A stretch of DNA of 49,446 nucleotides from Pseudomonadota bacterium. Lineage in GTDB: Bacteria; Desulfobacterota; QYQD01. Each line of letters begins with the position of its first letter. Within the stretch, counting starts at the first letter, position 1. Location: NCBI GenBank assembly GCA_011046395.1, contig DSAQ01000131.1, forward strand, positions 1 to 49,446. Direction: 5' to 3'. Made by a program: the position numbers and the translations under genes. The notes beneath the pieces were generated by a model. That model saw only the letters and a list, made by a program, of their open reading frames with translations, did no database searches and was not told where the DNA came from. Below are positions 3,198-23,055 of this stretch, piece after piece.

Positions 3198-3641
3198 TCA
3201 GTACCACCCTGGATGTCTGTGTCCGCTATGACAGGTAGTGCAGAGATTTTTAGGAATGGTCAAAGTCCTCTGATGTTCCTCTTTCGTTGGAGCCTTAAGA
3301 TGCAGGCTGGCCGGGCCATGACAGGACTCGCACTGCTTATTAGCCATATGCAGAGTCTCTTCTACGCTGCGAAACCCGCCCGGCTGTCCAAAACCTGTAG
3401 TATGGCAGCGAAGGCAATTCGGATCACGGTCTTTCTTTCTCATCTGGATAATTCGAAAATTCTTGGAGTACTTCCACGTTAAGTATGTCTCTACCTCTTT
3501 AGGGTGACACTCTTTACACTTTGCCATCCCCACATAGGTAGCCTTGCCCTTTGCCGCCTGCGCTGTTTGTGCGGTAAGCGACAAGCCCATACCGTAAGTA
3601 AAAAATAACCAAAAAGCCACTATCATAATAAATATTTTCAT
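3198..3641 (-). CDS. Tetrahaem c-type cytochrome (cytochrome c554-like family), secreted
   Basis: Four CxxCH motifs (CKECH, CLRCH, CESCH, CTTCH). Signal peptide MKIFIMIVAFWLFF...AQAAKG. Start uncertain: ATG 3641 preferred, and the ORF track allows 3689. Confidence 0.8.
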   Translation of the reverse strand: MKIFIMIVAFWLFFTYGMGLSLTAQTAQAAKGKATYVGMAKCKECHPKEVETYLTWKYSKNFRIIQMRKKDRDPNCLRCHTTGFGQPGGFRSVEETLHMANKQCESCHGPASLHLKAPTKEEHQRTLTIPKNLCTTCHSGHRHPGWY

Positions 3642-3966
3642 TATCCCCTGACACCCCCTGTTATTTGTTTTTGTAACCAGTTGCAACATCTATAAATTAT
3701 ACATTAAATGCATTTCCCTCCCCAGTCAAGCCCACAATGAACCATCCACAAATCGGGACTGTAATACCGGGCGTTTTGATCCATTAACAATTATCTATTA
3801 CGCCACAGAAAACCCTTGACTAATGAATGGTTATGGTCTATGAAAATCAAGTATTGACTGATAAACTGCGCAAGCTAAAGTTTGCAGTTACAGATGCAAT
3901 TAATGACTTTGGTAAGGACCTCATTGGTAAGGATGTTTAACGGAGGTTCGGAAAGGAGAGGTTGGA

Positions 3967-5019
3967 ATGGATAAGACTGGCATTAAAAATGGGCCACAGG
4001 CTTTAACAAGCCGTAGAGATTGTCTCAAAATCATAGGGATGCTCGGCCTGGGTATGGCCGTCCCAAGCGTTTGGCCGACATCATCCGAGGCCAAACTTTC
4101 TAACGGTCTTAATCAGGTCAGTAGAACCCTTCCCCTTATGGGCACTTTTGTCAATATAACCGTGCTGCATCCATCTCAGGACAGGGCCATCGAGGCTGTG
4201 GAAAAGGGCTTTGCACGGATGGAGGAACTAGTCAAGGTATTTGACCGCTACTCTAACAGCACCCCGGTATCCTGGTTAAACCATAAGGGACAACTTAAGG
4301 ACGTCTGCCCTGAACTAGCACTGGTTATGAGCAAGGCCGCCTACTTTCATTTCCTGAGCCAGGGTTCTTTTGACATAACAGTGCAGCCCCTTGTTGACTT
4401 TTATAAAGAAGCATTTGCCAAGACCGGCCATGCGCCGTCACCAGAAAAGGTTAAAGAAAAATTAGCCCTAGTTGATGCCGATAAGATACAGTTTAATAAG
4501 CAAGGTATTCGTTTTTTAAAAGAAGGCATGGGCATCACCCTCGATGGTATTGCTAAAGGGTATATTGTTGACGAAGCCGCCAACGCCCTGAAGAAAATAG
4601 GCATACAGTATGCGCTGATCAATGCCGGTGGGGATATACGGGCCATTGGCGGGAACGGCCCGGATAAGTCCTGGAAAATCGGCATTACCGACCCTTGTAA
4701 GCGTAAGGAATATCTACAGATTATACAATTGAATAATGGCGCAATAGCTACCTCGGGTAACTACGAGGTCTATTTTGATCGGGAAAAGCTCTACCACCAC
4801 ATTATTGATACGCATACCGGCCGGTCTCCCAGAAATACTGCAAGTGTAAGTATTACAGCACCCACGGTTATGGAGGCCGACGCGCTTTCCACCACTGTCT
4901 TTGTTGAAGGCATAGAAAAAGGCATGCGGCTTGTGGAGGCATTGCCGAATGTGGAGGCTATGGTAATAATAACCAGCGGGAATAAGAAATTCGCTTCTAA
5001 GGGTTGGAAGACGGCCTAA
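3967..5019 (+). CDS. apbE: FAD:protein FMN transferase ApbE, Tat-exported
   Basis: Twin-arginine motif SRRDCLKI followed by a hydrophobic stretch. ApbE signatures ITLDGIAKGYIVD, LINAGGDI and ATSGNYE. SD ggaaaggagagg lies upstream of the ATG. Confidence 0.9.
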   Translation: MDKTGIKNGPQALTSRRDCLKIIGMLGLGMAVPSVWPTSSEAKLSNGLNQVSRTLPLMGTFVNITVLHPSQDRAIEAVEKGFARMEELVKVFDRYSNSTPVSWLNHKGQLKDVCPELALVMSKAAYFHFLSQGSFDITVQPLVDFYKEAFAKTGHAPSPEKVKEKLALVDADKIQFNKQGIRFLKEGMGITLDGIAKGYIVDEAANALKKIGIQYALINAGGDIRAIGGNGPDKSWKIGITDPCKRKEYLQIIQLNNGAIATSGNYEVYFDREKLYHHIIDTHTGRSPRNTASVSITAPTVMEADALSTTVFVEGIEKGMRLVEALPNVEAMVIITSGNKKFASKGWKTA

Positions 5020-7574: not shown

Positions 7575-8015
7575 TTAAGCCACTACCTTTGTAATCTTTG
7601 GATTGTAGGACTGATCTCCGCTATATTTGAGGTGGGCGTAATATTTTAGGCCGATGAAGGTAAGTACGACGAACAAAAGACTAAAAACGGCCCCTGAAAT
7701 ATCCTTATCGCCCAAAACCTGCGAGTGATAACCTATCAGCGCCCCGGCCACCAGACCGGCCAAGGGAACAAGATATAAGATAAAGGATGCCTTTACTCCC
7801 CCCTCCACCTTAAGCGAGACACGCACCCGCTGGCCTTTGGAGGCCCCTACGGTATTTAATGCCGTAAGCACTGTCTCGCCTTCGCCAAGCAGCCCGCACG
7901 TCTTGTGGGTCGAGCAACTGTCACACGCCGGGCTGCGCCTTATCCTAACCTTAGCCTGGTTGCCTTCAACGGCAACTACTTCTCCTTCTTCTTCGCGAAT
8001 ATGGGCCATTCTCAA
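7575..8015 (-). CDS. rseC: RseC/MucC family protein (SoxR-reducing system component)
   Basis: N-terminal beta-rich domain with Cys cluster ACDSCSTHKTCG, followed by two C-terminal TM helices. The typical RseC architecture, and its genomic linkage to rnf/rsx. Confidence 0.7.
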   Translation of the reverse strand: MRMAHIREEEGEVVAVEGNQAKVRIRRSPACDSCSTHKTCGLLGEGETVLTALNTVGASKGQRVRVSLKVEGGVKASFILYLVPLAGLVAGALIGYHSQVLGDKDISGAVFSLLFVVLTFIGLKYYAHLKYSGDQSYNPKITKVVA

Positions 8016-8488
8016 TCCACAACCCAGACCGTACAGTTCCGTACAGAGCTTACCACCTTGTTTGAGACGCTGCCGAACATAAATTCCTTTATTGCAGAAA
8101 CGCCTCTTCGCCCGACAACTATGGTATTATACTTTCCTTCCTGGGCCTCAAGCATAATGTCCCTGGCTATACCGACCTTTTTTACCTGAATCTTGACAGT
8201 TATCCTGTTACCAGAGATACCTGCTTCCTCCATAATTTTCCTGGCTGAAGCCGCAACGGATTCCATCATCTTGCGCTTCTCTTCCGTCAGTCCCTTTAAC
8301 TCCAGCATCTTACTGGCAAAGACGGGATGCAGCGAGGGTTCTTTTTCCAGGCCAGTGCCGGGAGCTTCCGGAAGCACACTGAATAGGGTTACCTCCACGG
8401 CCTTTGGGTTCACGGTATCAGCCACATACCGCACCGCCTTCATGGAATATTCTGACTCATCCATGGCTATCAATATCTTCTGAGACAT
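8012..8488 (-). CDS. Universal stress protein
   Basis: KILIAMDESEYS ... IVVGRRGVSAIKEFMFGSVSNKVVSSVRNCTVWVV (USP ATP-binding motif). Begins 11 nt downstream of rnfB. Confidence 0.85.
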   Translation of the reverse strand: MSQKILIAMDESEYSMKAVRYVADTVNPKAVEVTLFSVLPEAPGTGLEKEPSLHPVFASKMLELKGLTEEKRKMMESVAASARKIMEEAGISGNRITVKIQVKKVGIARDIMLEAQEGKYNTIVVGRRGVSAIKEFMFGSVSNKVVSSVRNCTVWVVD

Positions 8489-9342: not shown

Positions 9343-9924
9343 CTACTTGGCCAGCCCTAAAAGCCCGGCAAATGTTAATCCCATCATGCCGGCCGTTATC
9401 AAACAGATGGGAACGCCTTGTAGCAACTTGGGTACACGCGCTGTAGAATCCATCCGCTCCCGGATACCGGCCAGTAATATAAGAGCCATGTTAAAACCTA
9501 ACGCCGTCGATATGGCATAGACTAGGGCTTGCATAAAGGTGTATTCTTCTTTTATATTAAGCACTGCCACACCAAATATCATACAGTTCGTGGTAATCAG
9601 GGGTAAGAAGATACCGAGCGCCCGGTACAGGGGCGGCGCGACCTTTTGCATGATGATCTCTACAAGCTGTACCAGAGCCGCAATTACCAGAATAAAAACA
9701 AGAGTCTGGAGGTATTCCAGTCCGAAAACATCCAATACGGTTTTTTGGAGTATCCAACAGATGAGGCTAGCCAGCACATTGACAAAAAGAACTGCCGCCG
9801 ACATGCCCAGAGCACTACTCATGGAACTTGAGACGCCAACGAAAGGACAATTTCCCAAAAACCTAATCAATAGAATATTATTAATAAATATGGCTGAAAC
9901 CACCAACATCAGATAATCTTCCAT
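9343..9924 (-). CDS. rnfA: Rnf complex subunit A
   Basis: FLGNCPFVGVS and GIFLPLITTNC...LAGIRERM are near-identical to conserved RnfA/RsxA blocks. Confidence 0.92.
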   Translation of the reverse strand: MEDYLMLVVSAIFINNILLIRFLGNCPFVGVSSSMSSALGMSAAVLFVNVLASLICWILQKTVLDVFGLEYLQTLVFILVIAALVQLVEIIMQKVAPPLYRALGIFLPLITTNCMIFGVAVLNIKEEYTFMQALVYAISTALGFNMALILLAGIRERMDSTARVPKLLQGVPICLITAGMMGLTFAGLLGLAK

Positions 9925-10072: not shown

Positions 10073-10684
10073 CTATTTACGTTTTCTTCTCCCCCGCGCC
10101 GAGATCACATTCATGATTCCCAAAAGCAGCCCCAGGCAAACAAAGGCCCCAACGGGCCTGATCATGAATTCAAATCCTGGATAGCCCTCCCACATCACCG
10201 GAAGACCAAACCAGGTACCCTTACCCAGAATCTCGCGTATGGTAGCCACAACAACCAGCGAAATAGTAAAACCAAGCCCCATTCCCACTCCGTCAGCTAA
10301 GGAAAGCATAACGCCTTCCTTGCGGGCAAAGGCCTCGGCACGCCCCAAAACCAAACAGTTCACAACGATCAATGGAATCCAGATGCCTAACACGAGGAAA
10401 AGAGAATAAAAATACGCCTGCATGGTCAGCTCAACTATAACCACGCCAGTGGCGATAATAACAATAAAGACGGCAATACGGACTTTGTCCGGGATTATCT
10501 TACGCAAAGCCGAAACCAGCACATTACTCATGGTTGTCACGAAAATGACGGCACATCCCAGACCGAGGCCGTTTTTTACATCCGTCGTAACTGCCAGAAC
10601 CGAGCAAAGCCCCAATACAAAACGGAAGGGTGCTATCTCTTTCCATAAGCCTTTTGTAAACTCTTTAACAATGCGCGCTGCCAT
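10073..10684 (-). CDS. rnfE: Rnf complex subunit E
   Basis: GLWKEIAPFRFVLGLCSVLAVTT and LGIWIPLIVVNCLVLGRAEAFA match conserved RnfE/RsxE blocks. Confidence 0.92.
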   Translation of the reverse strand: MAARIVKEFTKGLWKEIAPFRFVLGLCSVLAVTTDVKNGLGLGCAVIFVTTMSNVLVSALRKIIPDKVRIAVFIVIIATGVVIVELTMQAYFYSLFLVLGIWIPLIVVNCLVLGRAEAFARKEGVMLSLADGVGMGLGFTISLVVVATIREILGKGTWFGLPVMWEGYPGFEFMIRPVGAFVCLGLLLGIMNVISARGRRKRK

Positions 10685-10702: not shown

Positions 10703-11287
10703 CTAGAACCCCAGTTGAGATTTATGCTTGGTGTACAGTTCCACGCCCGACTTCACGGCATTACTTACAGCGGTAGATGAAACCGTGGCGCCACTCAAAC
10801 CCTGGATCTCAGCGCCCAGGCTAAAATTAGCAGTTAGAGGCTTGCCCACAAACTGGGCACAAAAAGACGGATCTTCCTTGACCCTTGTCCCCACGCCGGG
10901 AGTCTCAGACAGGGTAGTCACTGCAACACCCTGCATCGTGCCGTCGGGCTTGACGGCCATCATCACACCTACGTTTCCGGCAAATCCCGGGGCCTCAGTC
11001 TCAAAGGCAATGGTAATGACCTGACCGGCTTTCTTGGCATAAAAGAAGGTAGTCGCAACATCTTTGCCCTTCTTGTCCTTGCCGGTTACAATCTCCTTCC
11101 GATCAGAAACCGGGTCATTATCATAGCCAACCAAGATCTGTTTCAAGGCCGGTTCTTTAATAAACTTGATTTTCTGATAGGTAATCTGGTCTGCCGTCGA
11201 AATACGCACCAAAGCTAATCCGCCCCCACAAACAGCGGAAACAATCGTCAGTACGACAATCATTTTGATAATATCACGAAGAGACAC
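10703..11287 (-). CDS. rnfG: Rnf complex subunit G (FMN-binding, periplasm-facing)
   Basis: N-terminal anchor helix. FMN_bind region with the flavinylation motif LSGATVSS. Confidence 0.9.
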   Translation of the reverse strand: MSLRDIIKMIVVLTIVSAVCGGGLALVRISTADQITYQKIKFIKEPALKQILVGYDNDPVSDRKEIVTGKDKKGKDVATTFFYAKKAGQVITIAFETEAPGFAGNVGVMMAVKPDGTMQGVAVTTLSETPGVGTRVKEDPSFCAQFVGKPLTANFSLGAEIQGLSGATVSSTAVSNAVKSGVELYTKHKSQLGF

Positions 11288-12245
11288 TGGCTTTTACCCT
11301 CCCATAGACTCTTGGTTTGATCTTATCCAACAATGGCGTCAACATGCTTATGATAAATATGGCAAAATAGGCCCCATCAATCCACTGGGACCACATACGA
11401 ATAATCATAGCCAGCACCCCACAAAGAAGACCGTAAATAATCATCCCCGGCTTGGTTACGGGTGACGTTGTGGGATCAGTAGCCAGGAAGAAAGCAGCCA
11501 AAAAGCCCCCGCCGGCTAACAAATGGAATACAGGACTGGCATATTGTTCAGCGTCAGATAGCCAGAAGATACCGGAAAATATGACCATACCTAAAAGAAA
11601 GCTCGCCGGGATGTACCAGGAAATAGTGCGCCTTATGATAAGGAAGATACCGCCGAGTAACAAAGCGACCTTGGAGACCTCACCGATAGCCCCAATGATG
11701 GGTATCCCAAGTAAGAGATCTTTGTTGGTAAAATACATCGCAAGAGAAGAAACTCCTTCGTCCCTCAGCACCTGCAAAGGAGGAAACTCCGTCATTAAAT
11801 CTCCCTCCGGGATAGCCCAGGCAATCATCTGCTGCGGATAGGACAACTGCAAAGCAACATAAGCCACGAGAACTCCATTAAATGGATTGCAGCCCCGGCC
11901 GCCATAAATCTCTTTTCCAAGAAGAATCAGTAACAAAGTACCAATGATAATGATCCACCAGGGGAGCGTAGGCGGCAGGAGCATTGCGAAGATAAGGCCG
12001 CTGGCTGCTCCGCTTAAATCGCTGACTGTTATCTCACGCCCCATCATCTTCTGAAAGATTGCTTCCCAGGCCACTGCGGAGATAACGGAAATGGCTATAA
12101 CCTTAAGTGCTGCAAAACCGTAAAGGTAGCAGCCCATACCGACTGCCGGAAGTAAGGCTATAATTATAGAAAGCATCATTTTCCGCACAGAGTTGCCGCT
12201 ATGGATATGCGGCGTAGCAGATACGACAAGTTCCGGGGCTTTCAT
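11274..12245 (-). CDS. rnfD: Rnf complex subunit D (atypical: canonical flavinylation Thr not found)
   Basis: Conserved blocks SATPHIHSG, GKEIYGGRGCNPFN, GEVSKVALLLGG and FFLATDPTTSP match RnfD/NqrB. Overlaps rnfG by 14 nt and rnfC by 4 nt. Confidence 0.88.
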   Translation of the reverse strand: MKAPELVVSATPHIHSGNSVRKMMLSIIIALLPAVGMGCYLYGFAALKVIAISVISAVAWEAIFQKMMGREITVSDLSGAASGLIFAMLLPPTLPWWIIIIGTLLLILLGKEIYGGRGCNPFNGVLVAYVALQLSYPQQMIAWAIPEGDLMTEFPPLQVLRDEGVSSLAMYFTNKDLLLGIPIIGAIGEVSKVALLLGGIFLIIRRTISWYIPASFLLGMVIFSGIFWLSDAEQYASPVFHLLAGGGFLAAFFLATDPTTSPVTKPGMIIYGLLCGVLAMIIRMWSQWIDGAYFAIFIISMLTPLLDKIKPRVYGRVKASVSS

Positions 12246-13537
12246 TCGCTACTCCTTTGCGCCATAATTTGTGCCTTGCCAAATTTTATCCAGTGCACCA
12301 TTGGTATCATTACCGGGCACACGTAGGCACAGCATCCACATTCAATGCATGTGAATATATCATTGTCCTGAGCCTTCGAATACATCCCTTTTTCTGAAAA
12401 ACCGGAAATAATAAACGGCATCAGGCCCACAGGGCAAATCTCCACACATAACCCGCATTTAATACAGACAGCCGCATCGAACCTGGTAATATCTTTTTCA
12501 TGCTGGACAAAAATACCCAGCACCTCTTTGGTCACCGGCGTCTCGGTATTGGCAATGGCCGTGCCCATCATGGGGCCACCAGATATAACCTTGCCCATCC
12601 CTTCCACAGAAATTCCACAATGCCCTAAAACTTCCCTAATCGGTGTACCTATCCTTACCTGAACGTTCTTGGCTCCGGTACCATTGCTCCTGGTAACGGT
12701 GATAAACCTATCCACGACCGGCTTCTTCTCCGCCATAGCCCGGCCCACTGCCGCCACTGTCTCGACACTCAGGACCAGGGCGCCTATATCGGCCACACAA
12801 TAAGCCTCTGTACAGGGCACTTCCTTACCCAGTATCGACTTTACCAGTAAGAGATCAATTGCCTGGGGATACTTAGGGTTTAACCCCACTATGGTAGCCG
12901 CACCACCACAGGCAGAGCCAATAGCCGATATAGCCTGCGCGGCATTTTCATCGACAGCTATATACACCGATGCTGCTCCAATTATGCTTTTTATAGTATC
13001 TATCCCGCAGGCCACTTCCTGAACCCTTTCAGACAACAGACGTGACCGGCTCGAGAGTACCGGCTCTATGTCCATGGCATTCACAATAAGGGCATTAGCC
13101 CGGCGAGACTTTGCCTCATTGAGCTTCGCGACAAGAGGGACCGGCTTTATATCGAAATCAACGATTCCCGCCTGTTGTATGGTGGTCAATGGATCTGCGC
13201 TGCTCTCCAGTCCTACCCACTCATCCTTGCCATCAGATTCTATGACCACAGCCGGGACGAATCCCCCTAAAAGATGGGGATAGGCCTTTATTACCTCGGC
13301 TACTTTACCGGAAACCGTGGCATGGATGGAAGCCCCTTCCGGGGTAGCGCTTTCACCGATGACTTGTCCGACTTTGACCTCGTCACCCTTTTTAACCTTG
13401 GCATTACAAACTCCGCCGAGATCTTGTCTGAGAGGGATAGTTACAACACCGGAGGGGATGATACGTTCGAAGGGTTTATTTGCGCTTACATCTGAAATAG
13501 ACAAGCGAATACCGCCAGAAAAGCTACCTGCGCTCAT
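12242..13537 (-). CDS. rnfC: Rnf complex subunit C (atypical: FMN/NADH motifs degenerate)
   Basis: GGPMMG plus two ferredoxin motifs (CIKCGLCVEICP, CIECGCCAYVCP), collinear with E. coli RsxC as I recall it. SD GGAAGGAGAG lies upstream of the ATG. Confidence 0.88.
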   Translation of the reverse strand: MSAGSFSGGIRLSISDVSANKPFERIIPSGVVTIPLRQDLGGVCNAKVKKGDEVKVGQVIGESATPEGASIHATVSGKVAEVIKAYPHLLGGFVPAVVIESDGKDEWVGLESSADPLTTIQQAGIVDFDIKPVPLVAKLNEAKSRRANALIVNAMDIEPVLSSRSRLLSERVQEVACGIDTIKSIIGAASVYIAVDENAAQAISAIGSACGGAATIVGLNPKYPQAIDLLLVKSILGKEVPCTEAYCVADIGALVLSVETVAAVGRAMAEKKPVVDRFITVTRSNGTGAKNVQVRIGTPIREVLGHCGISVEGMGKVISGGPMMGTAIANTETPVTKEVLGIFVQHEKDITRFDAAVCIKCGLCVEICPVGLMPFIISGFSEKGMYSKAQDNDIFTCIECGCCAYVCPVMIPMVHWIKFGKAQIMAQRSSE

Positions 13538-13700
13538 ATTTGTTCACTCTCTCCTTCCAGCGAATTACGGGATTGGATATACCTAAACATACTCTTTGTC
13601 AAGAGAAAAAGGCGATATTATGATATGTAACTATGATTATCTCATAACCGGACCATTTACAAATGCAAATTTAAAATGGGACTAATACGGTCCGCAAAAG

Positions 13701-13732
13701 AAAAACGGGAAGTTTATAAACTTCCCGTTTTA
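13701..13732 (-). terminator. Palindromic rho-independent terminator between the cytochrome c3 gene and rnfC
   Basis: aacgggaagtt-tata-aacttcccgtt is a perfect hairpin, followed on the minus strand by tttttctttt. Confidence 0.7.
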
Positions 13733-13751: not shown

Positions 13752-14135
13752 TTATTTTTTGTGACATTCGCCACACATCACAGGGAGTGACTTGCCTGCT
13801 GCCAGTTTGGTCTCACGGTGACAACCCACACAATTCTCGTGAAAGGCCTTCATGAGCCCCATCTTCTTGCCCTCAGCCTTCAGGCCATGGCAGGTCGCAC
13901 AATTCGTCTCCCGCGACTCATCCCAGACATTCTCTCCATCTACATAAAAATGATGACACGCTGTACACTCAATGGTAGCAAAGTGCTGGGCATGTTGGAA
14001 TGTTACGGCCGGCCTCTGTCGATTTTCGAAGGCTTTATGTTCCAGCTTTATCACTTCCTCCTGGGCGTAAGCACAGGTAGCTATTATAAAAATAGCCAAA
14101 ACTATCATTAGCAGAATGCCCTTGTTATTTCTCAT
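13752..14135 (-). CDS. Tetrahaem cytochrome c3 family protein, periplasmic
   Basis: Signal peptide ending CAYAQE. Four haem motifs CTACHH, CATCHG, CVGCHR and CGECHK, with the class III cytochrome c3 spacing (VTFQHAQH...C..CHH). SD AGGAGG. Confidence 0.88.
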   Translation of the reverse strand: MRNNKGILLMIVLAIFIIATCAYAQEEVIKLEHKAFENRQRPAVTFQHAQHFATIECTACHHFYVDGENVWDESRETNCATCHGLKAEGKKMGLMKAFHENCVGCHRETKLAAGKSLPVMCGECHKK

Positions 14136-14527: not shown

Positions 14528-15829
14528 TCATTTTGATAAGAAAATATCGAATAACTCCACCAGATGCACAGCCTGCGCATTAAGCCCATGTCTAGATAAG
14601 CCTTCCTTCCACTGCAATAGGCAACCCATACAACTGGTGACTAACATGTCCACGTCCATGTCTTTTAGTACCATAATTCGCCTGGCGAGGATTTCACACG
14701 ATAAATCGTAATGGGTAAGGTTGAATAGTCCACCGTGTCCACAGCATGCGGGGCCATCCTCGAATTCACGGAAATCAACGCCCGGTAAAGACCTGATAAG
14801 CAGGCGCGGTTCCTCGATAATATTCTGTTTAAATCGAAAATGGCATGGATCGTGATACCTCACCTTCAAAATTTCATCTTTTACCGTCAAGGCGTACAAA
14901 TACCGGGGGAAGTCCCTCTCATGAAACAAAAAAGCCGATATATCTATCACTTTTGCCGAAAACTCCGCCGCTTTTTCTGCAAAAACCGGGTCACCGGCCA
15001 GGAGTTTAGGATAATTAAATCTTAGATGTGAGCTGCAAGAGGCGCAGTTCGTAATGATGTGATCGCATCGGCTGTCAATAAATACGGATATATTGGCCCT
15101 GGCCAAGGATTGTGCCGTCTCTTCATCCCCGGCCGCAAAGGCCGGAAACCCGCAGCATTTTTGTTTTTCAGGCACATAAATGGGCTCGCCAAGAAAATCA
15201 AAAATATTCAGGATGGCCTTACCAACGTCAGGGAAAAGATAATTTGTGACGCACCCTGTAAAGTAGGCAGCCTTAACTGAGGTGCTCGTCTCTTCTGACG
15301 AGTTCTCCTCCAGAAAAAACTTCTCGGCTAATGCCGGCAACCATGATCTTCCGGCTAACAGGGGAATCGGAAACCGACAATGAAGACCGCTATCTTCCGG
15401 GACTCTTTTACAAAGAAGGCCCTGGATCAGGGAACCGCCTTTTAATATAAAAGGCAAAAGATGTTCAGAATCCAGAAGGTAATGAAAAAAGCACCGTTTC
15501 CCCGCAGGAAGCCCCTTCTCTTCGACCAACCTTGCCCGCGCTTCCTGTATGGAGGCATCCGCATTTACCCCGGCGGGACAGGCATTTGAACAGGCCCCGC
15601 AAAGGAGGCAGTAAGATAGCAGCTCGGCAAAGCGGTCAGAAAACGGCAACCTGCCTTCCCGGTTCGCCTCGATAAGACTCAATTTACCCCGGGGCGCATA
15701 AACCTCCATTCCTGTCACCTGGTAAACAGGACAAACGCTCATACACGTCCCGCATTTGTTGCATGAGGGTGTGCTAATGGATTCTACCTCCTGATCTCCA
15801 CTTTCTTTATCTCTCCCTGTACTTATCAA
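14528..15829 (-). CDS. (Fe-S)-binding CCG-domain oxidoreductase (GlcF/HdrD-like)
   Basis: Two N-terminal 4Fe-4S motifs (CNKCGTCMSVCP, CLLCGACSNACP) and two C-terminal CCG motifs (KCCGFPAF, ACCGHGGL). No TM segments. Confidence 0.8.
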   Translation of the reverse strand: MISTGRDKESGDQEVESISTPSCNKCGTCMSVCPVYQVTGMEVYAPRGKLSLIEANREGRLPFSDRFAELLSYCLLCGACSNACPAGVNADASIQEARARLVEEKGLPAGKRCFFHYLLDSEHLLPFILKGGSLIQGLLCKRVPEDSGLHCRFPIPLLAGRSWLPALAEKFFLEENSSEETSTSVKAAYFTGCVTNYLFPDVGKAILNIFDFLGEPIYVPEKQKCCGFPAFAAGDEETAQSLARANISVFIDSRCDHIITNCASCSSHLRFNYPKLLAGDPVFAEKAAEFSAKVIDISAFLFHERDFPRYLYALTVKDEILKVRYHDPCHFRFKQNIIEEPRLLIRSLPGVDFREFEDGPACCGHGGLFNLTHYDLSCEILARRIMVLKDMDVDMLVTSCMGCLLQWKEGLSRHGLNAQAVHLVELFDIFLSK

Positions 15830-16361: not shown

Positions 16362-16589
16362 AACCCCTCCTATAATCATCTCCCTTTAAAAATCAAGCGG
16401 GCTTCTGGCCTCTTTCAACCCTGCCCGGCAGCAATTCTTAATAGAGGAAAACGGCCTGGTTAGCCTGCTTTTGCTGTGCTGGAGATTGACGTTTATCCTG
16501 TAGCTTTCTTTAGGATATCGTGCTTCCTTGTAATATTACATAATGATAATTATTCAATTAGAAAATTAATAAAAAAAACAAAAAGTTAC

Positions 16590-16618
16590 TTGTCAAGCAT
16601 TTTTACATCTGATAATTA
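16590..16618 (+). promoter_or_regulatory. Candidate sigma70 promoter for the HEPN ORF
   Basis: TTGTCA, a 17-nt spacer, then TAATTA, inside a strongly AT-rich tract about 55 nt upstream of ATG 16673. Confidence 0.3.
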
Positions 16619-16672
16619 ATCAGAAACTATATACCAACTTGTTGTGCGTATTAAGAATGAAAAACATGAATT

Positions 16673-17455
16673 ATGATTACTGTAAATGATCTAGAAAATT
16701 ATACACCAGGTGGCACAACCACAATTACGCTTGGTAATCCATATAAAATTGCACCTAGAGATTACCTTAATTTCGCATCCGAAGACTTGAAAGAAAAAAA
16801 GGATAAGCGTTCACTGGTTAATGCCTTGTCAAATGCTAAACGATCCTTACATTTTCAAATCGACTTATTAACAAAAGCATTTGGTATATCCAATCTAGCC
16901 CCAAAAAAACGTCTCGATTTTCCAAGGAAGTTAGAATTTTGTGTGCAGTGCGGGATCGTTGGCCCACAAATACTACGAAAAATGAATCAATTGCGTAACA
17001 CTGTTGAGCACGAGTATTATGTGCCTGAACTTGATGAAGTTAAAGATTTTATTGACATAACAGAGCTCTTTATTGTGGCAACTGATCATATTCTAAAGAA
17101 TTTTCCGAATGATATAGAATTTCGATCTCCAGAGATTGATTTGTTTGGTATCCCAAGAAGAGGCATTGGAATTATCATTAAACCCTATGATGGGAAAATA
17201 ACTATCCACATTAATGACTTTATTACTGAGCCCAAGCCAAGACTAGATAATGCTGAAAACATATATGAAGAATACAAAGAAATATCAAATGGTCTTAAGG
17301 AAGGTGTTCAACTTCCGGATATGTCCGACGAGGAAAGAATAAAATATTATCGTGCAATCTCACGAAAAGTAATATCTAATAAATTGGAATTTTCTGTTAA
17401 TGATGGCAAAGACTATTTTGAATGGGTGTCTTTTGTTTTGAATAAAAGGTATTAG
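16673..17455 (+). CDS. HEPN-domain protein (Rx4H motif) with uncharacterised C-terminal half
   Basis: The helical N-terminal ~150 aa end helix 3 in LRKMNQLRNTVEHEY, an R-x4-H / RN..H.Y motif typical of HEPN RNases. I do not recognise the C-terminal ~110 aa. The ORF is visibly far more AT-rich than its neighbours. Confidence 0.6.
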   Translation: MITVNDLENYTPGGTTTITLGNPYKIAPRDYLNFASEDLKEKKDKRSLVNALSNAKRSLHFQIDLLTKAFGISNLAPKKRLDFPRKLEFCVQCGIVGPQILRKMNQLRNTVEHEYYVPELDEVKDFIDITELFIVATDHILKNFPNDIEFRSPEIDLFGIPRRGIGIIIKPYDGKITIHINDFITEPKPRLDNAENIYEEYKEISNGLKEGVQLPDMSDEERIKYYRAISRKVISNKLEFSVNDGKDYFEWVSFVLNKRY

Positions 17456-17637
17456 CAAATAACAGGTTATCGCACAATCGGGTAGCCGGGGGTGTTTAGC
17501 CCCCAGCCCCCACACCACCTAGCATCCGCCTGCGGCGGACTAGGCGGTTCATGAAGCCTATCGGGCCGTAGCCGGATAGTGAATGTCCACCCACAGTTTT
17601 TTGAGCCATTGATTGGTCATGCCGAAAAGTGATGACC

Positions 17638-17895
17638 CTAGATGCGTAGTTTTAAAAACCTCGCATTTATCGCTACTATCACTGTGCTTAAGGACATGAG
17701 CATCGCGCCCATCGCAGGGCCGAGAAGTATTCCAGCCTTATAAAGGACCCCTGCCGCAAGGACGTGAGAAGGGGACGTAGTCACGTTAATTCCCTTTTCC
17801 AATGCGACATTTTGATAAAAAGTAACGTTAGACATAAAAAACGGAACAGGCCTGTATTGTAAATCGTAAAATAGAATTGACCCCTGCATCGTCAT
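17638..17895 (-). pseudogene. 3-prime remnant of a heavy-metal P1B-type ATPase gene
   Basis: The C-terminal ~65 aa (FYQNVALEKGINV...AAGVLYKAGILLGPAMGAMLMSLSTVIVAINARFLKL) match the last two TM helices of CadA/ZntA/CopA-type ATPases. No upstream P-type domains are present. Confidence 0.6.
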
Positions 17896-17973
17896 TTAGA
17901 AATGCCCCCCTGCCTATCCAAGGCATCCTCCCCTTAGACAAGAGATAGCATTCTAACGTTATGCAGTTATTAT

Positions 17974-18002
17974 TTGACAAATAGTTCAACTTAATGTAAA
18001 GT
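17974..18002 (+). promoter_or_regulatory. Candidate sigma70 promoter giving a leaderless or near-leaderless transcript
   Basis: TTGACA, a 17-nt spacer, then TAAAGT ending 6 nt before ATG 18009. No SD sequence between them. Confidence 0.4.
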
Positions 18003-18008
18003 AGCGGC

Positions 18009-19178
18009 ATGATTAGGCCAAGAGAGATCTATGAAAAGATTAGACCGTATTTCGATTCTCCGGAGGCGATCATTGTTACGGGCATGCGGAGAACCGGCAA
18101 GACTACGCTTCTCCATCTGGTCTTTGACCAAATAAAGTCCAAGAACAAGCTTTTTCTGGATTTAGAAAATCCATTAAACAGAAAATATTTTGAGGAGACT
18201 AATTACGACCGCATAAAGGTGTCCCTTGAGTTCCTGGGAATCGACTTCACCGGCAGACCTTTTATCTTTTTAGATGAGATACAGATGGTAAAAAACCTGC
18301 CGTCTGTGCTCAAATATTTCATCGATCATTACCATGTAAAATTTTTCTTAACCGGCTCAGCCAGCTTCTACCTTAAGAACCTATTTACCGAGTCCCTTGC
18401 CGGAAGAAAGTATATATTTGAGCTTTTCCCTTTAAGCTTCAGGGAATTTCTTCTATTCAAAGAGAGCGCTCTAAGGATACCCGAAACGGCTACAGATATC
18501 ACCCGTCCTATCTATGAGGCGATTAGACCGCTCTATGACGAGTATATTTTATTCGGTGGTTTCCCGGGGGTGGTGTTGAAAAGCAGTGCCGAAGAAAAAA
18601 GGAAGGCACTGGAAGAGATATTCTCCTCCTTTTTTCAACTGGAAATCCTCCAGTTGGGAGATTTCCGCAGAAATGACGTGATTCGTGACTTGATGCTGCT
18701 CCTGATACAACGACTCGGCTCCAGACTGGACATTCAAAGGATTTCCAAGGAATTGGGAATTTCCAGACCTACGCTGAGTGAATACATCTCATTCTTGGAA
18801 GGAACGTACTTTATAAAGAGAATAAGACCATTCAGCAGTGGAAAAGACACTGAGATCAGAAAAATGCCCAAGGTGTACGTGTGTGACACTGGTCTAGCGA
18901 ATCACCTTGCCAGACTGGATCCGGGCAGCCTTTTTGAAAACAGCATCTTTCAAAATCTCGGGCTCAAGGGAGAACTCAACTACTATCAGAAGAAAGGCGG
19001 AACTGAAATAGACTTTATTGTGGACAAAAGCCAGGCTTACGAGGTCAAGGTCAGTCCCCAGGAATCCGACGTTAAAAGACTCAGATCCATGGCCATGGAT
19101 CTAAAATTGGAAGGATTTAAAGTCGTTTCAAAGAACTACAGCGACCTGGAAAACGTTATCTATGGATTCATGTTGTGA
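18009..19178 (+). CDS. AAA+ ATPase with C-terminal DUF4143 / PD-(D/E)xK-like nuclease domain (COG1373 type)
   Basis: Walker A GMRRTGKTT, Walker B FIFLDEIQ, a winged-helix-like middle (ISKELGISRPTLSEYISFLE), and C-terminal GTEIDFIVDKSQAYEVK (D...ExK). Confidence 0.8.
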   Translation: MIRPREIYEKIRPYFDSPEAIIVTGMRRTGKTTLLHLVFDQIKSKNKLFLDLENPLNRKYFEETNYDRIKVSLEFLGIDFTGRPFIFLDEIQMVKNLPSVLKYFIDHYHVKFFLTGSASFYLKNLFTESLAGRKYIFELFPLSFREFLLFKESALRIPETATDITRPIYEAIRPLYDEYILFGGFPGVVLKSSAEEKRKALEEIFSSFFQLEILQLGDFRRNDVIRDLMLLLIQRLGSRLDIQRISKELGISRPTLSEYISFLEGTYFIKRIRPFSSGKDTEIRKMPKVYVCDTGLANHLARLDPGSLFENSIFQNLGLKGELNYYQKKGGTEIDFIVDKSQAYEVKVSPQESDVKRLRSMAMDLKLEGFKVVSKNYSDLENVIYGFML

Positions 19179-19263
19179 CCGCTATGGGCACCGGATAGGA
19201 TCAGCAAGACTCGTGGTTTTTGTGTATTCCGCTGAAACTAACCATTATCCCCCTAACTCTTCT

Positions 19264-19752
19264 TCAGACTTTAAACTCAGCCTTGATCTTGAATAAGCGT
19301 ATGGCGGGAAAGTTGTAGACCTTAACGCCGGTCTTCTCGGTTATCTCTTTCAGTTGCCTTTCGATGGCCTCTTCCGACTCGGCGATAAAGGTAAACCAGA
19401 CATTGAAGGCGTGTCTGCGTAAGTAGTTATGGGTTACTCCCTGGTAAGAGTTTACGACCCTCACAAATTCCTCTAATCTTTCCGGTGGGACCTTGGCCCC
19501 GCAGAGAGTAGTCATATAACCCAGGCGGCGGGAATCAAAATTCGCCCCCAGACGGCGTATGATGCCCCTATCCTGCAAACGCCTAATCCGGTCTAAAACT
19601 TCGGTCTCCGTGAGTTGGAGCCGCTCTCCTATAGTCGCATAGGGACGGGATTCAATCGGAAAATGGGATTGTATCTCGTTTAAAATGGCCCGGTCCCTTT
19701 CATCCATGGAAGGGGTGTCCACCTTCTCCATCACACCAGCCATAAACGTCAT
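19264..19752 (-). CDS. Siroheme decarboxylase subunit (AhbA/AhbB, Lrp/AsnC-like)
   Basis: RDRAILNEIQSHFPIESRPYATIGERL plus a C-terminal NirD-like half. Start placed at the ATGA overlap with the ahbD stop (19752); the ORF track extends to 19806. Confidence 0.75.
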   Translation of the reverse strand: MTFMAGVMEKVDTPSMDERDRAILNEIQSHFPIESRPYATIGERLQLTETEVLDRIRRLQDRGIIRRLGANFDSRRLGYMTTLCGAKVPPERLEEFVRVVNSYQGVTHNYLRRHAFNVWFTFIAESEEAIERQLKEITEKTGVKVYNFPAIRLFKIKAEFKV

Positions 19753-20888
19753 CTTTGCCCTTTGGCCAGGGCCTCTTTTTTCATTTTCAGGGGTTGATAG
19801 GTACAAAGGGGTTCTTCAGCCAGGTAATCACCGGACATCTCATGGGCCCGGGCCCTGCATCCACCACAGAAACGATGATATTCACATGCACCGCACTTGC
19901 CTTTGTACATCTTGGGATTGCGCAGATTAAGGAAAACCGGCGATTCCCTCCATATACGAGAAAGAGGCATCTCGCGCACCGAGCCACAGTTTATCTCTAA
20001 ATAACCGCAAGGCTGAACATCTCCCCGATGTGAGACAAAACAGAAGCCAACACCTCCCAGACATCCGCGGGTCACGGCATCCAGTCCGTGGGACTGGAAG
20101 GTTACCTCTTTTCCTTCCGCCCTGGCCCGCTGCCTCAGGATACGGTAATAGTGCGGGGCACAGGTGGCCTTGAGATGTAGAGGAACCTTATCCTTTTGCT
20201 CATAAAACCAGTTCAGGGTCTCTTCATATTCGGCGGCGGAAAGGGCCTGGTCAGCCAAGTCCTTGCCCCGTCCGGTGGGAACCAGGAGAAAGATATGATG
20301 AGCTACCGCCCCGAGTGATACGGTGAGTTCCTGTATGGCCGGCAGTTCATGGACGTTTGTCTCGGTAATCGTGGTATTAATCTGAAATTCTAAACCGGCC
20401 TGCTTCGCCTCTTTTATGCCCTGAAGCGCGCCCTTAAAGGCCCCCTCTACCTGACGGAATTTATCATGGCTTTCGGCCGTCGCCCCATCAATACTTATAC
20501 TCAGCCTCTTTATTCCGGCGTCCACCATAGAGCGCGCGATTTCCGGCGTGATAAGGGTGCCGTTGGTGGCCATGACCATACGCAGGCCCTTGTCCGTACC
20601 GTATCGGGCCAGCTCGAAAATATCCTCACGCAGGAGGGGCTCGCCACCGGTCATGATCATGACCGGCTGGGCATGGGCAGCGATGTCGTCAATAATCTTC
20701 TTGCACTCTTCCGTGGATAATTCGTTTTCATAAGGCCCGCGGGTTGCGGACGCCCGGCAGTGGACACAAGAGAGGTTACAGTTCCTTGTCAATTCCCACG
20801 CTACCAGGCGAAGCGTCGGCCCGTCCTGCCCCTGTGGAGGACCACTATGGGCATGTGAAGGATGGCCATGGGGATGATTCGGTTTCAT
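19749..20888 (-). CDS. ahbD: Radical SAM/SPASM haem synthase AhbD (NirJ2-like)
   Basis: CNLSCVHC radical SAM cluster and a Cys-rich SPASM C-terminus ([13 protein letters not shown]). The position next to hemB and the AsnC-like gene mirrors the Desulfovibrio ahb locus as I recall it. Confidence 0.7.
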
Positions 20889-21859
20889 CTACGCAATAAC
20901 CTCGCTGCATCTTTGGCATAATAAGTGATGATAATATCTGCTCCGGCCCGTCTGATACTAAGGAGACATTCCATCATGACCCGTTCTTCATCCAGCCAGC
21001 CCATCTTGGCCGCCGCCTTTACCATGGCATACTCGCCGCTGACCTGATAAGCGGCAATGGGATGGTCAAATTCCTCCCGCAAACGAGAGATGATATCCAG
21101 ATAAGGCAGGGCCGGTTTAACCATGAGGATGTCAGCGCCTTCCTCCATATCCAGGGTGGCCTCACGCAGGGCCTCGCGGCTGTTGGCGGGGTCCATCTGA
21201 TACGAACGCCGATCTCCGAACTGTGGGGCACACTCCGCCGCCTCGCGGAAAGGCCCGTAAAAACTGGAGGCATACTTAACCGCATAGGACATAATGGGTA
21301 TGTGTTCAAGGCCATCTTCATCCAGGGTCTCACGGATCTCAGCCACCCGGCCGTCCATCATATCCGAAGGCGCAACCATGTCCGCCCCGGCCCGGGCATG
21401 GGAAAGGGCTACCCTGCCCAGTATCTCCAGGGTGGCATCATTGTCGATCTCGCCCCCGGAGACAAAACCACAGTGGCCGTGACTCGTGTATTCACAGAGG
21501 CAGACATCCGTGATAACCAGAAGGTCTTTATCTAATGACTTTATCTCAGCGATAGCCCTTTGCACAATGCCATCTTTAGCATAGGCCCGGGAGGCTATCT
21601 CGTCCTTCTTCTCCGGGATACCGAAAAGAAGAACGGCCTTAAGGCCGACTTCTTTAATCTCCTTAAGCTCAGCCTTCAACTGATCGATTGAGAGTTGAAA
21701 ACACCCGGGCATAGAAGGAATCTCTTTCTTAATCTTTCTTCCCGGCACAACAAAAAGGGGATAGACAAACTGATCAGGCGCAAGCTGTGTCTCCCGAATC
21801 AGGGCACGGAAATTTTCATTCCGACGCATACGACGCGGGCGATAATCCGGAAATAGCAT
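20885..21859 (-). CDS. hemB: Porphobilinogen synthase (delta-aminolevulinate dehydratase), Zn type
   Basis: Full-length HemB similarity. Zn-binding [14 protein letters not shown]. Active-site Lys regions ([10 protein letters not shown]). Confidence 0.93.
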
Positions 21860-21861
21860 CT

Positions 21862-23055
21862 CTAAGCCTCCTCGGCAATCCCGATTTCTTTATCCGTCAG
21901 ATAACAAGCCGGGTCCGGCGCCCAGATATCCCCGGTGACGGCCTCAGCCCTTACCCGGAAATTCCCGGCACAGATATCCAGCCACTTACATCGGGCACAG
22001 CGGCCCTTGACATGGGCCTTCTTATTCTTAAGGGCCGCCATAAGCGGGTTTGACAGATCCGTCCATATCTCGCTAAACGGACGTTGACGGACATTGCCAA
22101 ATGAGTAATATCTCCAGAATTGATCCGCATGGACGCTGCCGTCCCAGCTTATACAGCCAATACCCCGGCCGGAATTATTTCCCTCGTTCATTTTAAGTAA
22201 TTCCAGGACCTCCGCAGCCCGGGGTGAATTCTCCTTTACCATACGCAGATAGACATAAGGGCCGTCGGCATGGTTATCCACCGTCAGCACCTCTTTTGGC
22301 TTACCGCGGCGATGCAAGTCGGCAGTACGATCAATGATAATATCCACTACCCGCCGGGTTTCTTCGTGAGCAAGGTCTTCTTCGACCAGTTTACTGCCCC
22401 GTCCCGCATAAACCAGATGATAAAAACAGATCCGCGGAACTTCTTCCCGTTCTAATAGGCCAAAAATGGCCGGTATCTCGGCGACATTAAGCTTATTAAT
22501 GGTAAACCTTAAACCCACCTTAATACCAGCTTCCTGGCAATTTCTAATACCCCTCATGGCCCCAGCAAAGGCCCCCTTAACCCCACGAAAATGGTCATTG
22601 ACCTCTTCCATACCATCCAGACTTATACCCACATAAGAAAGGCCGATCTTCTTCAATACCTTGGCCATGTCTTTGCTGATAAGCGTACCATTTGTAGAAA
22701 CTACGGCCCGCATGCCTTTTTCCACGGCGTAAGCCGCAAGCTCAGGCAGATCCGGACGCATAAAAGGCTCGCCGCCGGAGAAAAGAAGGACCGGACTGCC
22801 GAACTGGCTTAGATCATCGATCAGTTTTTTCCCTTCGGCCGTGGAGAGTTCATCCGGCGCGCCCACACTGTCCGCCTGGGCATAACAATGCACACACTTT
22901 AAGTTACAACGCCGGGTGGCATTCCAGACCACCACCGGCTTTTTGTCTGCCGAAAACTGGAGAAGGTGCGAGGGCAGCTTCCCGGAGTGTCTGCCATAGC
23001 GCAAGGCGTCAGACGGCTCCACCGTACCGCAATAAAGTTTAGATATACCGATCAT
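21862..23055 (-). CDS. ahbC: Radical SAM Fe-coproporphyrin synthase AhbC (NirJ1-like)
   Basis: N-terminal [28 protein letters not shown] radical SAM motif, and C-terminal [14 protein letters not shown]. Confidence 0.7.

Follow-up and report, generated by a model that had tools for sequence, protein, structure and literature searches.

Anaerobes have two main ion pumps that are driven by ferredoxin, and Rnf is one of them. In genome annotation and in metabolic models, every rnfCDGEAB cluster is labelled a 'ferredoxin:NAD+ oxidoreductase' (NAD, nicotinamide adenine dinucleotide; NADH, its reduced form). In NuoF-type modules, a glycine loop binds the phosphate of flavin mononucleotide (FMN) and the pyrophosphate of NADH, and acidic, asparagine and lysine residues touch flavin and nucleotide. 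Here we examine an rnf operon in which the NuoF-like domain of RnfC lacks this loop and RnfD lacks the threonine that bears its own FMN. The operon lies in a stretch of 49,446 nucleotides, called the window throughout: contig DSAQ01000131.1, positions 1 to 49,446 of the forward strand, from assembly GCA_011046395.1, deposited as Pseudomonadota bacterium (GTDB lineage Bacteria; Desulfobacterota; QYQD01).

The canonical electron path is known from the structures solved for Rnf of A. woodii and of C. tetanomorphum. Electrons from ferredoxin enter the clusters of RnfB, cross the [2Fe-2S] cluster of RnfA/E, and pass to the FMN of RnfG (Thr185/Thr164) and then to that of RnfD (Thr156/Thr153), Thr156 being the attachment site in A. 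woodii (PMC11889175, PMC9588780). From RnfD they reach riboflavin (ligands N123 and D249), the two clusters of RnfC, the FMN of RnfC and finally NAD+ (PMC11889175, PMC9588780). The steps from RnfG to RnfD, riboflavin and RnfC span <5 Å, 7.7 Å and 11.7 Å (PMC11889175; PMC9588780).

Several relatives depart from this scheme. NqrA, a subunit of the NADH:quinone oxidoreductase that translocates Na+ (Na+-NQR), is proposed to have lost its NAD and FMN sites while retaining a structural role (PMC4014512); quinone binds to NqrB in that enzyme (PMC11889175; PMC12174285). The Rnf of Methanosarcina acetivorans does not use NAD, and its electrons are proposed to pass from RnfG to cytochrome c (PMC4023990). 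Two-subunit Nqr/Rnf-like systems without the RnfD flavinylation site are proposed to export electrons through an RnfG-like flavin (PMC10979944). Energy-conservation schemes for sulfate reducers rely on NADH from Rnf (e.g. Price et al. 2014, PMC4215793); a hypothesis for these organisms, as cited in PMC4287179, has the operon cytochrome link the periplasmic cytochrome pool to ferredoxin/NAD(P)H. A 2025 review of RNF and NQR describes the cofactors of the membrane subunits as strictly conserved and does not mention sulfate reducers (PMC12174285).

RESULTS

Replacement of the FMN/NADH pocket in RnfC

Family score, fold and operon all identify the 431-residue open reading frame, which starts with ATG, as a genuine RnfC. 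It scores 344.9 bits against TIGR01945 (NCBIfam; cutoff 245.95), and a profile built from 170 canonical RnfC sequences matches it over its full length with 438 bits. Since it passes the NCBI rnfC model, it can be expected to be named a ferredoxin:NAD+ oxidoreductase subunit. Pfam finds the RnfC_N, Complex1_51K (E = 3.8e-21) and 4Fe-4S dicluster (Fer4) families and no match to the SLBB model PF10531. The domains follow the order of the family: an N-terminal barrel-sandwich, the NuoF-like domain and a C-terminal ferredoxin domain. Three solved RnfC chains served as references (A. woodii 9eri_C, A. vinelandii 8ahx_C and C. tetanomorphum 7zc6_C); phmmer matches them at E of about 1e-67. The AlphaFold2 model has a predicted local distance difference test score (pLDDT) of 91.6 overall and 94-95 in the altered loops, and Foldseek gives template modelling (TM) scores of 0.93 to 8ahx_C and 9eri_C and 0.91 to 7zc6_C. 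GGPMMG occupies residues 320-325, and the gene heads an operon of the order rnfCDGEAB, all on the minus strand (Table 1).

What stands in place of the flavin loop? The canonical G-x-G-G-A-x-F-P is replaced by D-F-D-I-K-P-V-P, and a regular-expression scan of the whole 431-residue protein for G.GG..[FY]P returned no occurrence. In phmmer alignments, this stretch and that of the second motif lie without gaps opposite AGIVG[LM]GGA[IT]FP..VKL and N[GA][SA]ECEPYLT[CA]D of the three solved chains. The 170-sequence canonical profile places them identically, again without gaps and at maximal posterior probability across both motifs, so that misalignment is ruled out. Loss is only partial in the second motif, which keeps N153, E158 and P159 and has a conservative change of E156 to D; C157, Y160 and D164 are gone.

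The replacements extend beyond the two motifs. We compared the 170 canonical sequences with 87 that form a variant clade with the window protein, without preselecting sites. Fifteen positions with at least 85% conservation among the canonical sequences are replaced in the clade, and 14 of them, all except R360, lie in the NuoF-like domain. Twelve switch residue class (G127, G130, A131, F133, E156, C157, Y160, D164, K199, E228, N257 and R360); the other three, M168, I232 and L274, are conservative hydrophobic swaps. The first eleven of the twelve are conserved in 88-100% of the canonical set, and the four loop residues G127, G130, A131 and F133 fall from 98-100% there to 0-2% in the clade. In the window protein, the changes at conserved pocket sites outside the loop are E156D, C157I, Y160V, D164R, K199A, E228D and N257S. 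The clade has conserved pocket residues of its own (D127, 89%; L135, 83%; D156, 91%); both groups conserve the eight cluster cysteines, GGPMMG, K138 and N153.

We infer from these residues that the variant RnfC has lost the binding of FMN and NAD(H), and its canonical FMN/NAD(H) port is very probably not functional. Could it instead have a non-canonical way of binding a flavin together with NAD(H) or a related dinucleotide, leaving the complex the ferredoxin:NAD+ oxidoreductase of the usual sulfate-reducer annotation? The replacement of every one of the four glycine-loop positions, and of seven or more other conserved pocket residues, with Asp at the phosphate-binding glycine, makes this quite improbable, even though K138, N153, E158 and P159 are conserved, Complex1_51K is still matched, and the genetics of D. 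alaskensis have been interpreted with a ferredoxin:NADH model (PMC4215793).

An earlier note on this DNA had described the open reading frame as an RnfC carrying GGPMMG and two CxxCxxCxxxCP motifs, and the TIGR01945 score, fold, operon and motif positions bear this out. Its observation that no GGAGFP-like loop occurs anywhere in the protein stands, as does its view that the substitution is in place and not a misalignment: in the profile and structure alignments that it proposed, no intact glycine loop is placed, on a predicted fold close to that of solved RnfC. It had held the FMN/NADH motifs to be lost, which is right for the glycine loop and only partly so for the second motif; K199, E228 and N257 were absent from its list. 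Its suggestion that the canonical NAD(H) port is disabled gains support from these sequence-level tests.

Loss of a flavin site in RnfD and state of the other subunits

RnfD has changed as well: the threonine on which ApbE places FMN is missing. In the window, P155 aligns to T156 of A. woodii and T153 of C. tetanomorphum, and the canonical motif [ST]-x-A-[TS]-P-L is missing. Across 82 loci and the window, [ST]xA[TS] occurs in almost all canonical-RnfC loci whose RnfD aligns across the site and is lacking from the variant loci; nine of 13 variant loci have neither Thr nor Ser at the site and just one has a proper A-T there. The 120 closest homologues of RnfD have Pro (51), Thr (about 30), Ala (about 20), Ser (14) or Tyr (6) at this position, and the full canonical motif appears only in the most distant. 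The window and each of the 13 variant loci have the riboflavin ligands N123 and D257; about 20 of the 120 homologues deviate from N and D at these sites, mostly with S and E.

All other cofactor sites are kept. RnfG T168, which aligns to the flavinylated Thr of solved RnfG, is retained in 13 of 13 variant loci, together with C26/C114 and T112/N113 of RnfA, C27/C110 and R69/E117 of RnfE, and the cysteines of RnfB. Because of this retention, the losses are specific to the two flavin sites on the NAD-side half of the electron path. The loss of the RnfD threonine correlates with that of the RnfC loop and offers independent support for a disabled NAD port; it also tells against non-canonical NAD(H) binding by RnfC. 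The correlated change in two subunits is clade-wide, and its RnfD part, a site degenerate throughout the clade, is newly seen here. RnfE differs at two further sites. N17, which is Asn in 91% of canonical loci, is Ile, Val or Leu in 13/13 variant loci; T82 (87% Thr) is Val or Ile in 12/13. These changes may be relevant to ion specificity or gating.

rnfE shows a separate peculiarity. In relatives about 89% identical, an in-frame TGA occupies the codon of Cys110, the intramembrane [2Fe-2S] ligand, where the window has TGT (10355..10357, minus strand). The TGA loci, numbered as in our comparison set, are L001:10855-11482, L002:3495-4124, L098:3537-4139 and L100 (minus strand, 4088-4690). Their reading frame continues unbroken after the TGA, and gene callers split or miss the gene. 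In L001, an 8-bp GC hairpin begins 15 nt past the TGA; it is absent from the Cys version. TGA and TGT probably represent a selenocysteine/cysteine pair at an Fe-S ligand.

Table 1. Features of the rnf region in the window, and the fused rnfB genes of related loci
Feature	Position	Strand	Remarks
apbE (FAD:protein FMN transferase; FAD, flavin adenine dinucleotide)	3967..5019	+	needed for RnfG flavinylation
usp and rseC/mucC-like genes	7575..8488	-	conserved downstream members of the variant rnf cluster
rnfB, 268 aa	8500..9306	-	membrane-anchored polyferredoxin of ordinary length, without NAD(P)H-binding domain
rnfA	9343..9924	-	cluster ligands C26, C114 and ion-site residues T112/N113 kept
rnfE	10073..10684	-	cluster ligands C27, C110 and R69/E117 ion pair kept; N17 and T82 replaced by hydrophobic residues
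rnfG, 194 aa, GTG start	10703..11287	-	periplasmic FMN_bind domain; flavinylation motif SGAT (T168, nt 10784..10795) intact
rnfD, 323 aa	11274..12245	-	riboflavin ligands N123 and D257 kept; covalent-FMN threonine lost
RnfD residues 149-157, DLMTEFPPL	11775..11801	-	aligns to A. woodii RnfD DTVTTATPL; P155 opposite FMN-bearing T156
rnfC, variant type, 431 aa	12242..13537	-	RnfC_N barrel, NuoF-like (Complex1_51K) domain without FMN glycine loop, 2x[4Fe-4S] ferredoxin domain
Two CxxCxxCxxxCP motifs, RnfC residues 358-369 and 397-408	12317..12466	-	all 8 cysteines conserved in variant and canonical RnfC
Second motif position, RnfC residues 150-164, LIVNAMDIEPVLSSR	13046..13090	-	stands where canonical xIxNGAECEPYLTxD stands; N153, E158, P159 retained
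Glycine-loop position, RnfC residues 123-139, AGIVDFDIKPVPLVAKL	13121..13171	-	stands where the canonical AGIVGxGGAxFPxxVKL FMN/NADH loop stands
Strong terminator-like hairpin, 13-bp stem and T run	13702..13731	-	directly past the c3 stop codon, between the c3 gene and rnfC
Tetrahaem cytochrome c3, signal peptide, TmcA-like (type II c3)	13752..14135	-	directly upstream of rnfC
Fused rnfB	L089:11207-13294
Fused rnfB	L049:10406-12613		Desulfocarbo indianensis
Fused rnfB	L091:10844-12949		a Pseudodesulfovibrio

Extent and maintenance of the variant clade

The variant motifs are present in every one of the 69 database proteins closest to the window RnfC, the most distant of them at 38% identity; at about 40% identity and below, matches are almost all canonical. 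In an exhaustive search, 32 of the 150 best 50%-identity cluster representatives failed a strict match to the two canonical motifs. Twenty-eight of the 32 lack the glycine loop, and every one of these keeps both cluster motifs. A neighbour-joining tree rooted on a gammaproteobacterial RnfC contains one monophyletic group of 87 sequences, all variant, with about ten further variant proteins scattered elsewhere. Named members of the group are almost all Desulfobacterota: Desulfohalobium retbaense, Desulfonatronovibrio hydrogenovorans, Desulfonatronum, Desulfohalobiaceae, Desulfothermus, Desulfobacterales, Desulfocarbo indianensis and Desulfofervidaceae. A DNA-pattern scan of metagenomes yielded only four true loci. 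Scanning a genome collection with the Fe-S motif pattern shared by both types yielded mostly canonical RnfC, which we used as the canonical control set, and the variant loci L003, L004 and L049.

Is the altered gene maintained? Between the window rnfC and its 89%-identical relative in L001, the ratio of nonsynonymous to synonymous substitution rates (dN/dS) is 0.105 for the whole gene and 0.17 for residues 120-165, which span the pocket loops. The altered loops are thus under purifying selection. The idea that rnfC is a decaying, non-functional copy, or a product of faulty alignment or assembly, has the loss of the classic motifs as its sole support and is effectively refuted. The reading frame is intact and has full-length homologues in at least 87 sequences; dN/dS is 0.1-0.17; the fold is confidently predicted; the alignment is gapless at maximal posterior probability; and the variant state recurs in independent assemblies and in the cultured D. 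retbaense and D. hydrogenovorans. A pseudogene is ruled out by dN/dS, clade-wide conservation and the confident fold. The best explanation is that the variant RnfC is a functional member of an old, mostly Desulfobacterota-specific branch of the family.

The survey of orthologues proposed in the earlier note thus finds the loss to be clade-wide, in a monophyletic group. The note had spoken of degeneration of the cofactor site. NuoF-type pocket residues are indeed replaced in an intact fold, but because the state is clade-wide and ancient, has conserved residues of its own and is under purifying selection, 'remodelled and maintained' describes the protein better than 'degenerated'.

Fused RnfB proteins and other related loci

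In three lineages, RnfB is about 700 aa long and consists of the N-terminal part of RnfB joined to a GltD/NfnB-like NAD(P)-binding flavoprotein (Fer4_20 and Pyr_redox_2; Table 1). NF009410 matches the fused protein with 536 bits (cutoff 516), and those of L049 and L089 are 61% identical. All three lineages share the variant RnfC and RnfD losses, and the GltD-like fusion occurs in none of 64 canonical loci. The Pseudodesulfovibrio operon (L091) runs decahaem cytochrome, rnfC, rnfD, rnfG, rnfE, rnfA and fused rnfB, and has Ala at the RnfD flavin site. Its RnfC has no Pfam Complex1_51K match and the canonical RnfC profile skips its glycine-loop region, a further point against non-canonical flavin or NAD(H) binding. 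A 2024 survey described the same gene in many Desulfovibrionaceae as a loss of rnfB and a gain of an 'FAD-dependent oxidoreductase', and did not discuss RnfC or RnfD (PMC11434368).

That an NAD(P)H module has moved to RnfB in the sister lineages supports a disabled RnfC port and weighs once more against NAD(H) binding by the variant pocket. The window operon, because its RnfB is an ordinary polyferredoxin, lacks any recognisable NAD(P)H site.

Two other neighbourhoods were observed. In Desulfonatronovibrio (L086:1207-6690 and L004:50-4633), an nqrBCDEF-like cluster without nqrA, followed by apbE, lies directly upstream of variant rnfC. In a Desulfofervidaceae metagenome-assembled genome (L003:181-5917), three hydrogenase genes precede variant rnfC and there is no cytochrome gene. 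Two of the three are NiFe-hydrogenase-like, judged by eye from their N-terminal sequences only; the third, 773 aa long, joins an MvhD/VhuD-like domain to an [FeFe]-hydrogenase (NCBIfam).

Genes upstream of rnfC

The tetrahaem cytochrome c3 gene, 214 nt from rnfC, is a candidate for the periplasmic partner of the window Rnf. Its product scores 111.7 bits against NF045722 (cutoff 114), and the gene is syntenic with rnf in four related assemblies (L001, L002, L098 and L100). Strict linkage of variant RnfC to an adjacent cytochrome c gene can be rejected: only close relatives of the window and Pseudodesulfovibrio have one. A promoter-like site precedes rnfC at 13617..13645 (minus strand).

Farther upstream, 392 nt from the c3 gene, a 433-aa protein with 2x[4Fe-4S] and CCG domains, resembling the LdhH C-terminal part, GlcF, GlpC and HdrD, is encoded at 14528..15829 (minus strand); it is syntenic in L001 and, taken together with the TmcA-like cytochrome, is reminiscent of the TmcA/TmcB pair. 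A role as conserved Rnf partner is unsupported, the gene being present in the window and closely related loci only. At 19264..23055 (minus strand), a cluster for haem synthesis of the alternative (Ahb) type adjoins the rnf/cytochrome region and is syntenic with rnf in L001; it encodes a NirDL/AhbAB-like protein, two radical-SAM/SPASM proteins and HemB. An insertion with a low GC content (41%), about 2.9 kb long and at about 16400..19250, is absent from the syntenic L001 and holds two plus-strand reading frames (16673..17455 and 18009..19178), one without Pfam match and one for an AAA_14/DUF4143 ATPase. Beside apbE, at 3198..3689 (minus strand), lies the gene for a second small cytochrome c with four haems (c554/c7-like, 163 aa).

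DISCUSSION

How would electrons move through such a complex? With the NuoF-type pocket of RnfC rebuilt, canonical binding of FMN and NAD(H) would no longer be possible, and the second half of the U-shaped path would be interrupted at two points, the FMN of RnfD and the FMN/NAD site of RnfC. The first half is intact: from ferredoxin to the RnfB clusters, across the [2Fe-2S] cluster and ion site of RnfA/E, to the covalent FMN on periplasmic RnfG. Electrons would then be exchanged at the RnfG flavin with c-type cytochromes, much as in the Methanosarcina Rnf-MmcA system, for which this is the working model (PMC4023990); the acceptor may be the TmcA-like tetrahaem c3 encoded upstream or otherwise the periplasmic c3 pool, its identity as a cytochrome c3 being our second inference. 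RnfC would be kept as an Fe-S-bearing structural or auxiliary subunit, at an evolutionary stage intermediate between RnfC and NqrA, which has no cofactors. That the window Rnf is an NAD-independent, ion-translocating ferredoxin oxidoreductase with a periplasmic exit would follow from a path broken at both flavins beside an intact first half, and we consider this the best supported of the readings, with its chances evenly balanced. The link between Rnf and the cytochrome pool is an existing hypothesis; what is new here is sequence evidence for the loss of the NAD-side cofactor sites.

Several facts speak against a periplasmic exit with a merely structural RnfC. K138, N153, E158 and P159, the equivalents of flavin/NADH contacts in NuoF-type modules, remain conserved, and conservation is new at D127 and D156, so the altered pocket may bind something. 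A minority of the clade keeps Thr or Ser at the RnfD flavin site. The terminator-like hairpin parts the c3 gene from rnfC, and the cytochrome gene may be transcribed on its own or attenuated; of about twelve lineages sampled, only two have an adjacent cytochrome gene. In D. alaskensis, rnf had a fitness phenotype, whereas dhcA, the cytochrome gene of the operon, had none (PMC4215793). Finally, the RnfC cysteines and the RnfD riboflavin ligands are invariant, which a purely structural RnfC explains poorly and which suggests that the RnfD-RnfC branch still carries electrons.

This last point also speaks for the main rival, in which the full U-shaped path still runs to another final acceptor and RnfC is a re-targeted exit port, not a relic. 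Electrons would pass from RnfG through a non-covalent or substituted cofactor of RnfD to riboflavin and the two RnfC clusters, leaving to a one-electron cytoplasmic protein docked in the emptied pocket, or would reach menaquinone at RnfD as in Na+-NQR. The new acidic residues D127 and D156 in the old pocket would suit such a port, and where RnfB carries an NAD(P)H module, the acceptor must have a potential well above that of NAD, as it does in NQR; nqrBCDEF without nqrA directly adjoins variant rnfC in the Desulfonatronovibrio loci. Yet the loci compared share no conserved partner gene, and NqrB retains the FMN threonine that variant RnfD lacks. We know of no free-flavin pool in the periplasm, so that non-covalent filling of the RnfD site has no evident source. 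With that flavin missing, the gap from the RnfG FMN to riboflavin (the <5 Å and 7.7 Å steps, PMC9588780, and the flavin itself) is probably too wide for electron transfer. On balance, we find a re-targeted port rather unlikely; non-canonical flavin and NAD(H) binding is the minor rival.

The periplasmic-exit reading may be extended, tentatively and at less than even confidence, to the whole deep clade of sulfate-reducing Desulfobacterota, reaching into the Desulfovibrionaceae, for which models routinely treat Rnf as a ferredoxin:NAD+ oxidoreductase: RnfC would not be the NAD(H) port, and these complexes would be ion-translocating conduits from low-potential carriers of the cytoplasm to the periplasmic cytochrome c3 pool through the RnfG flavin. 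On the cytoplasmic side, electrons would be carried by ferredoxin at RnfB or, in complexes whose RnfB is fused to the GltD-like module, by NAD(P)H, and RnfC and RnfD would stand half-way to NqrA.

If a large clade of sulfate reducers does lack the flavin/NADH site of RnfC and the flavin of RnfD, then the acceptor, the ions moved per electron and the direction of electron flow need re-examination. A clade-wide conduit that bypasses NAD would change the accepted schemes of electron flow and energy conservation in these organisms and could account for rnf being essential on H2 and formate. The clade would also offer a natural intermediate for the RnfC-to-NqrA transition proposed at the origin of Na+-NQR. 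Cultured carriers are available for direct tests: Desulfohalobium retbaense, Desulfonatronovibrio hydrogenovorans, Desulfocarbo indianensis and Pseudodesulfovibrio. We found no mention of the loss of the RnfC loop or of the RnfD threonine in the accessible literature, where coverage of subscription journals is partial and an earlier mention is possible.

Comparison with known systems

With canonical RnfC of A. woodii, A. vinelandii and C. tetanomorphum, the window protein shares the family, the three-domain fold (TM 0.91-0.93), the two [4Fe-4S] motifs, GGPMMG and the rnfCDGEAB operon. It differs in lacking G-x-G-G-A-x-F-P, C157, Y160, D164, K199, E228, N257 and the SLBB Pfam match, and its partner RnfD lacks the FMN-bearing threonine.

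NqrA has a homologous fold (TM 0.64-0.68) and likewise has lost its FMN/NAD(H) site while being retained in its complex. However, NqrA has lost the ferredoxin-domain cysteines too, whereas the window RnfC keeps all eight; NqrB keeps a covalent FMN, which the window RnfD does not; and the window operon has rnfB and no nqrF. The NqrA family TIGR01936 gives 38 bits against a cutoff of 321. The retained cysteines, the absence of nqrF and this score rule out an NqrA identity, and the variant RnfC resembles the state postulated between RnfC and NqrA (PMC4014512).

The Rnf-MmcA system of M. acetivorans, MmcA being a multihaem cytochrome, is also a six-subunit Rnf with a c-type cytochrome gene ahead of rnfC (PMC4023990; PMC12174285). 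It differs in being archaeal, in its cytochrome family and in its acceptor, methanophenazine; the window proteins score 204 against a cutoff of 650 for rnfC_Methano and 200 against 400 for rnfD_Methano. The sole Methanosarcinales locus in our set, L009, has a canonical RnfC and is not of the Methanosarcina equivalog type.

Two-subunit Nqr/Rnf-like complexes resemble the window in having an RnfD-like subunit without the flavinylation threonine beside an RnfG-like subunit that keeps it, and are proposed to export electrons to extracytosolic acceptors (PMC10979944). There, an NAD-binding domain is fused to the RnfD-like protein, and RnfA, RnfE, RnfB and RnfC are missing.

The Rnf of Desulfovibrionaceae with a decahaem DhcA/CbcC-like cytochrome and an 'FAD-dependent oxidoreductase' for RnfB (PMC11434368; PMC4841214; PMC4215793) is encoded by a related operon of the sulfate-reducer type that shares the cofactor-site losses, which go unmentioned in the published accounts of it that we examined. 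It carries the GltD-like NAD(P)H module on RnfB and a decahaem cytochrome, where the window has an ordinary 268-aa polyferredoxin and a tetrahaem one.

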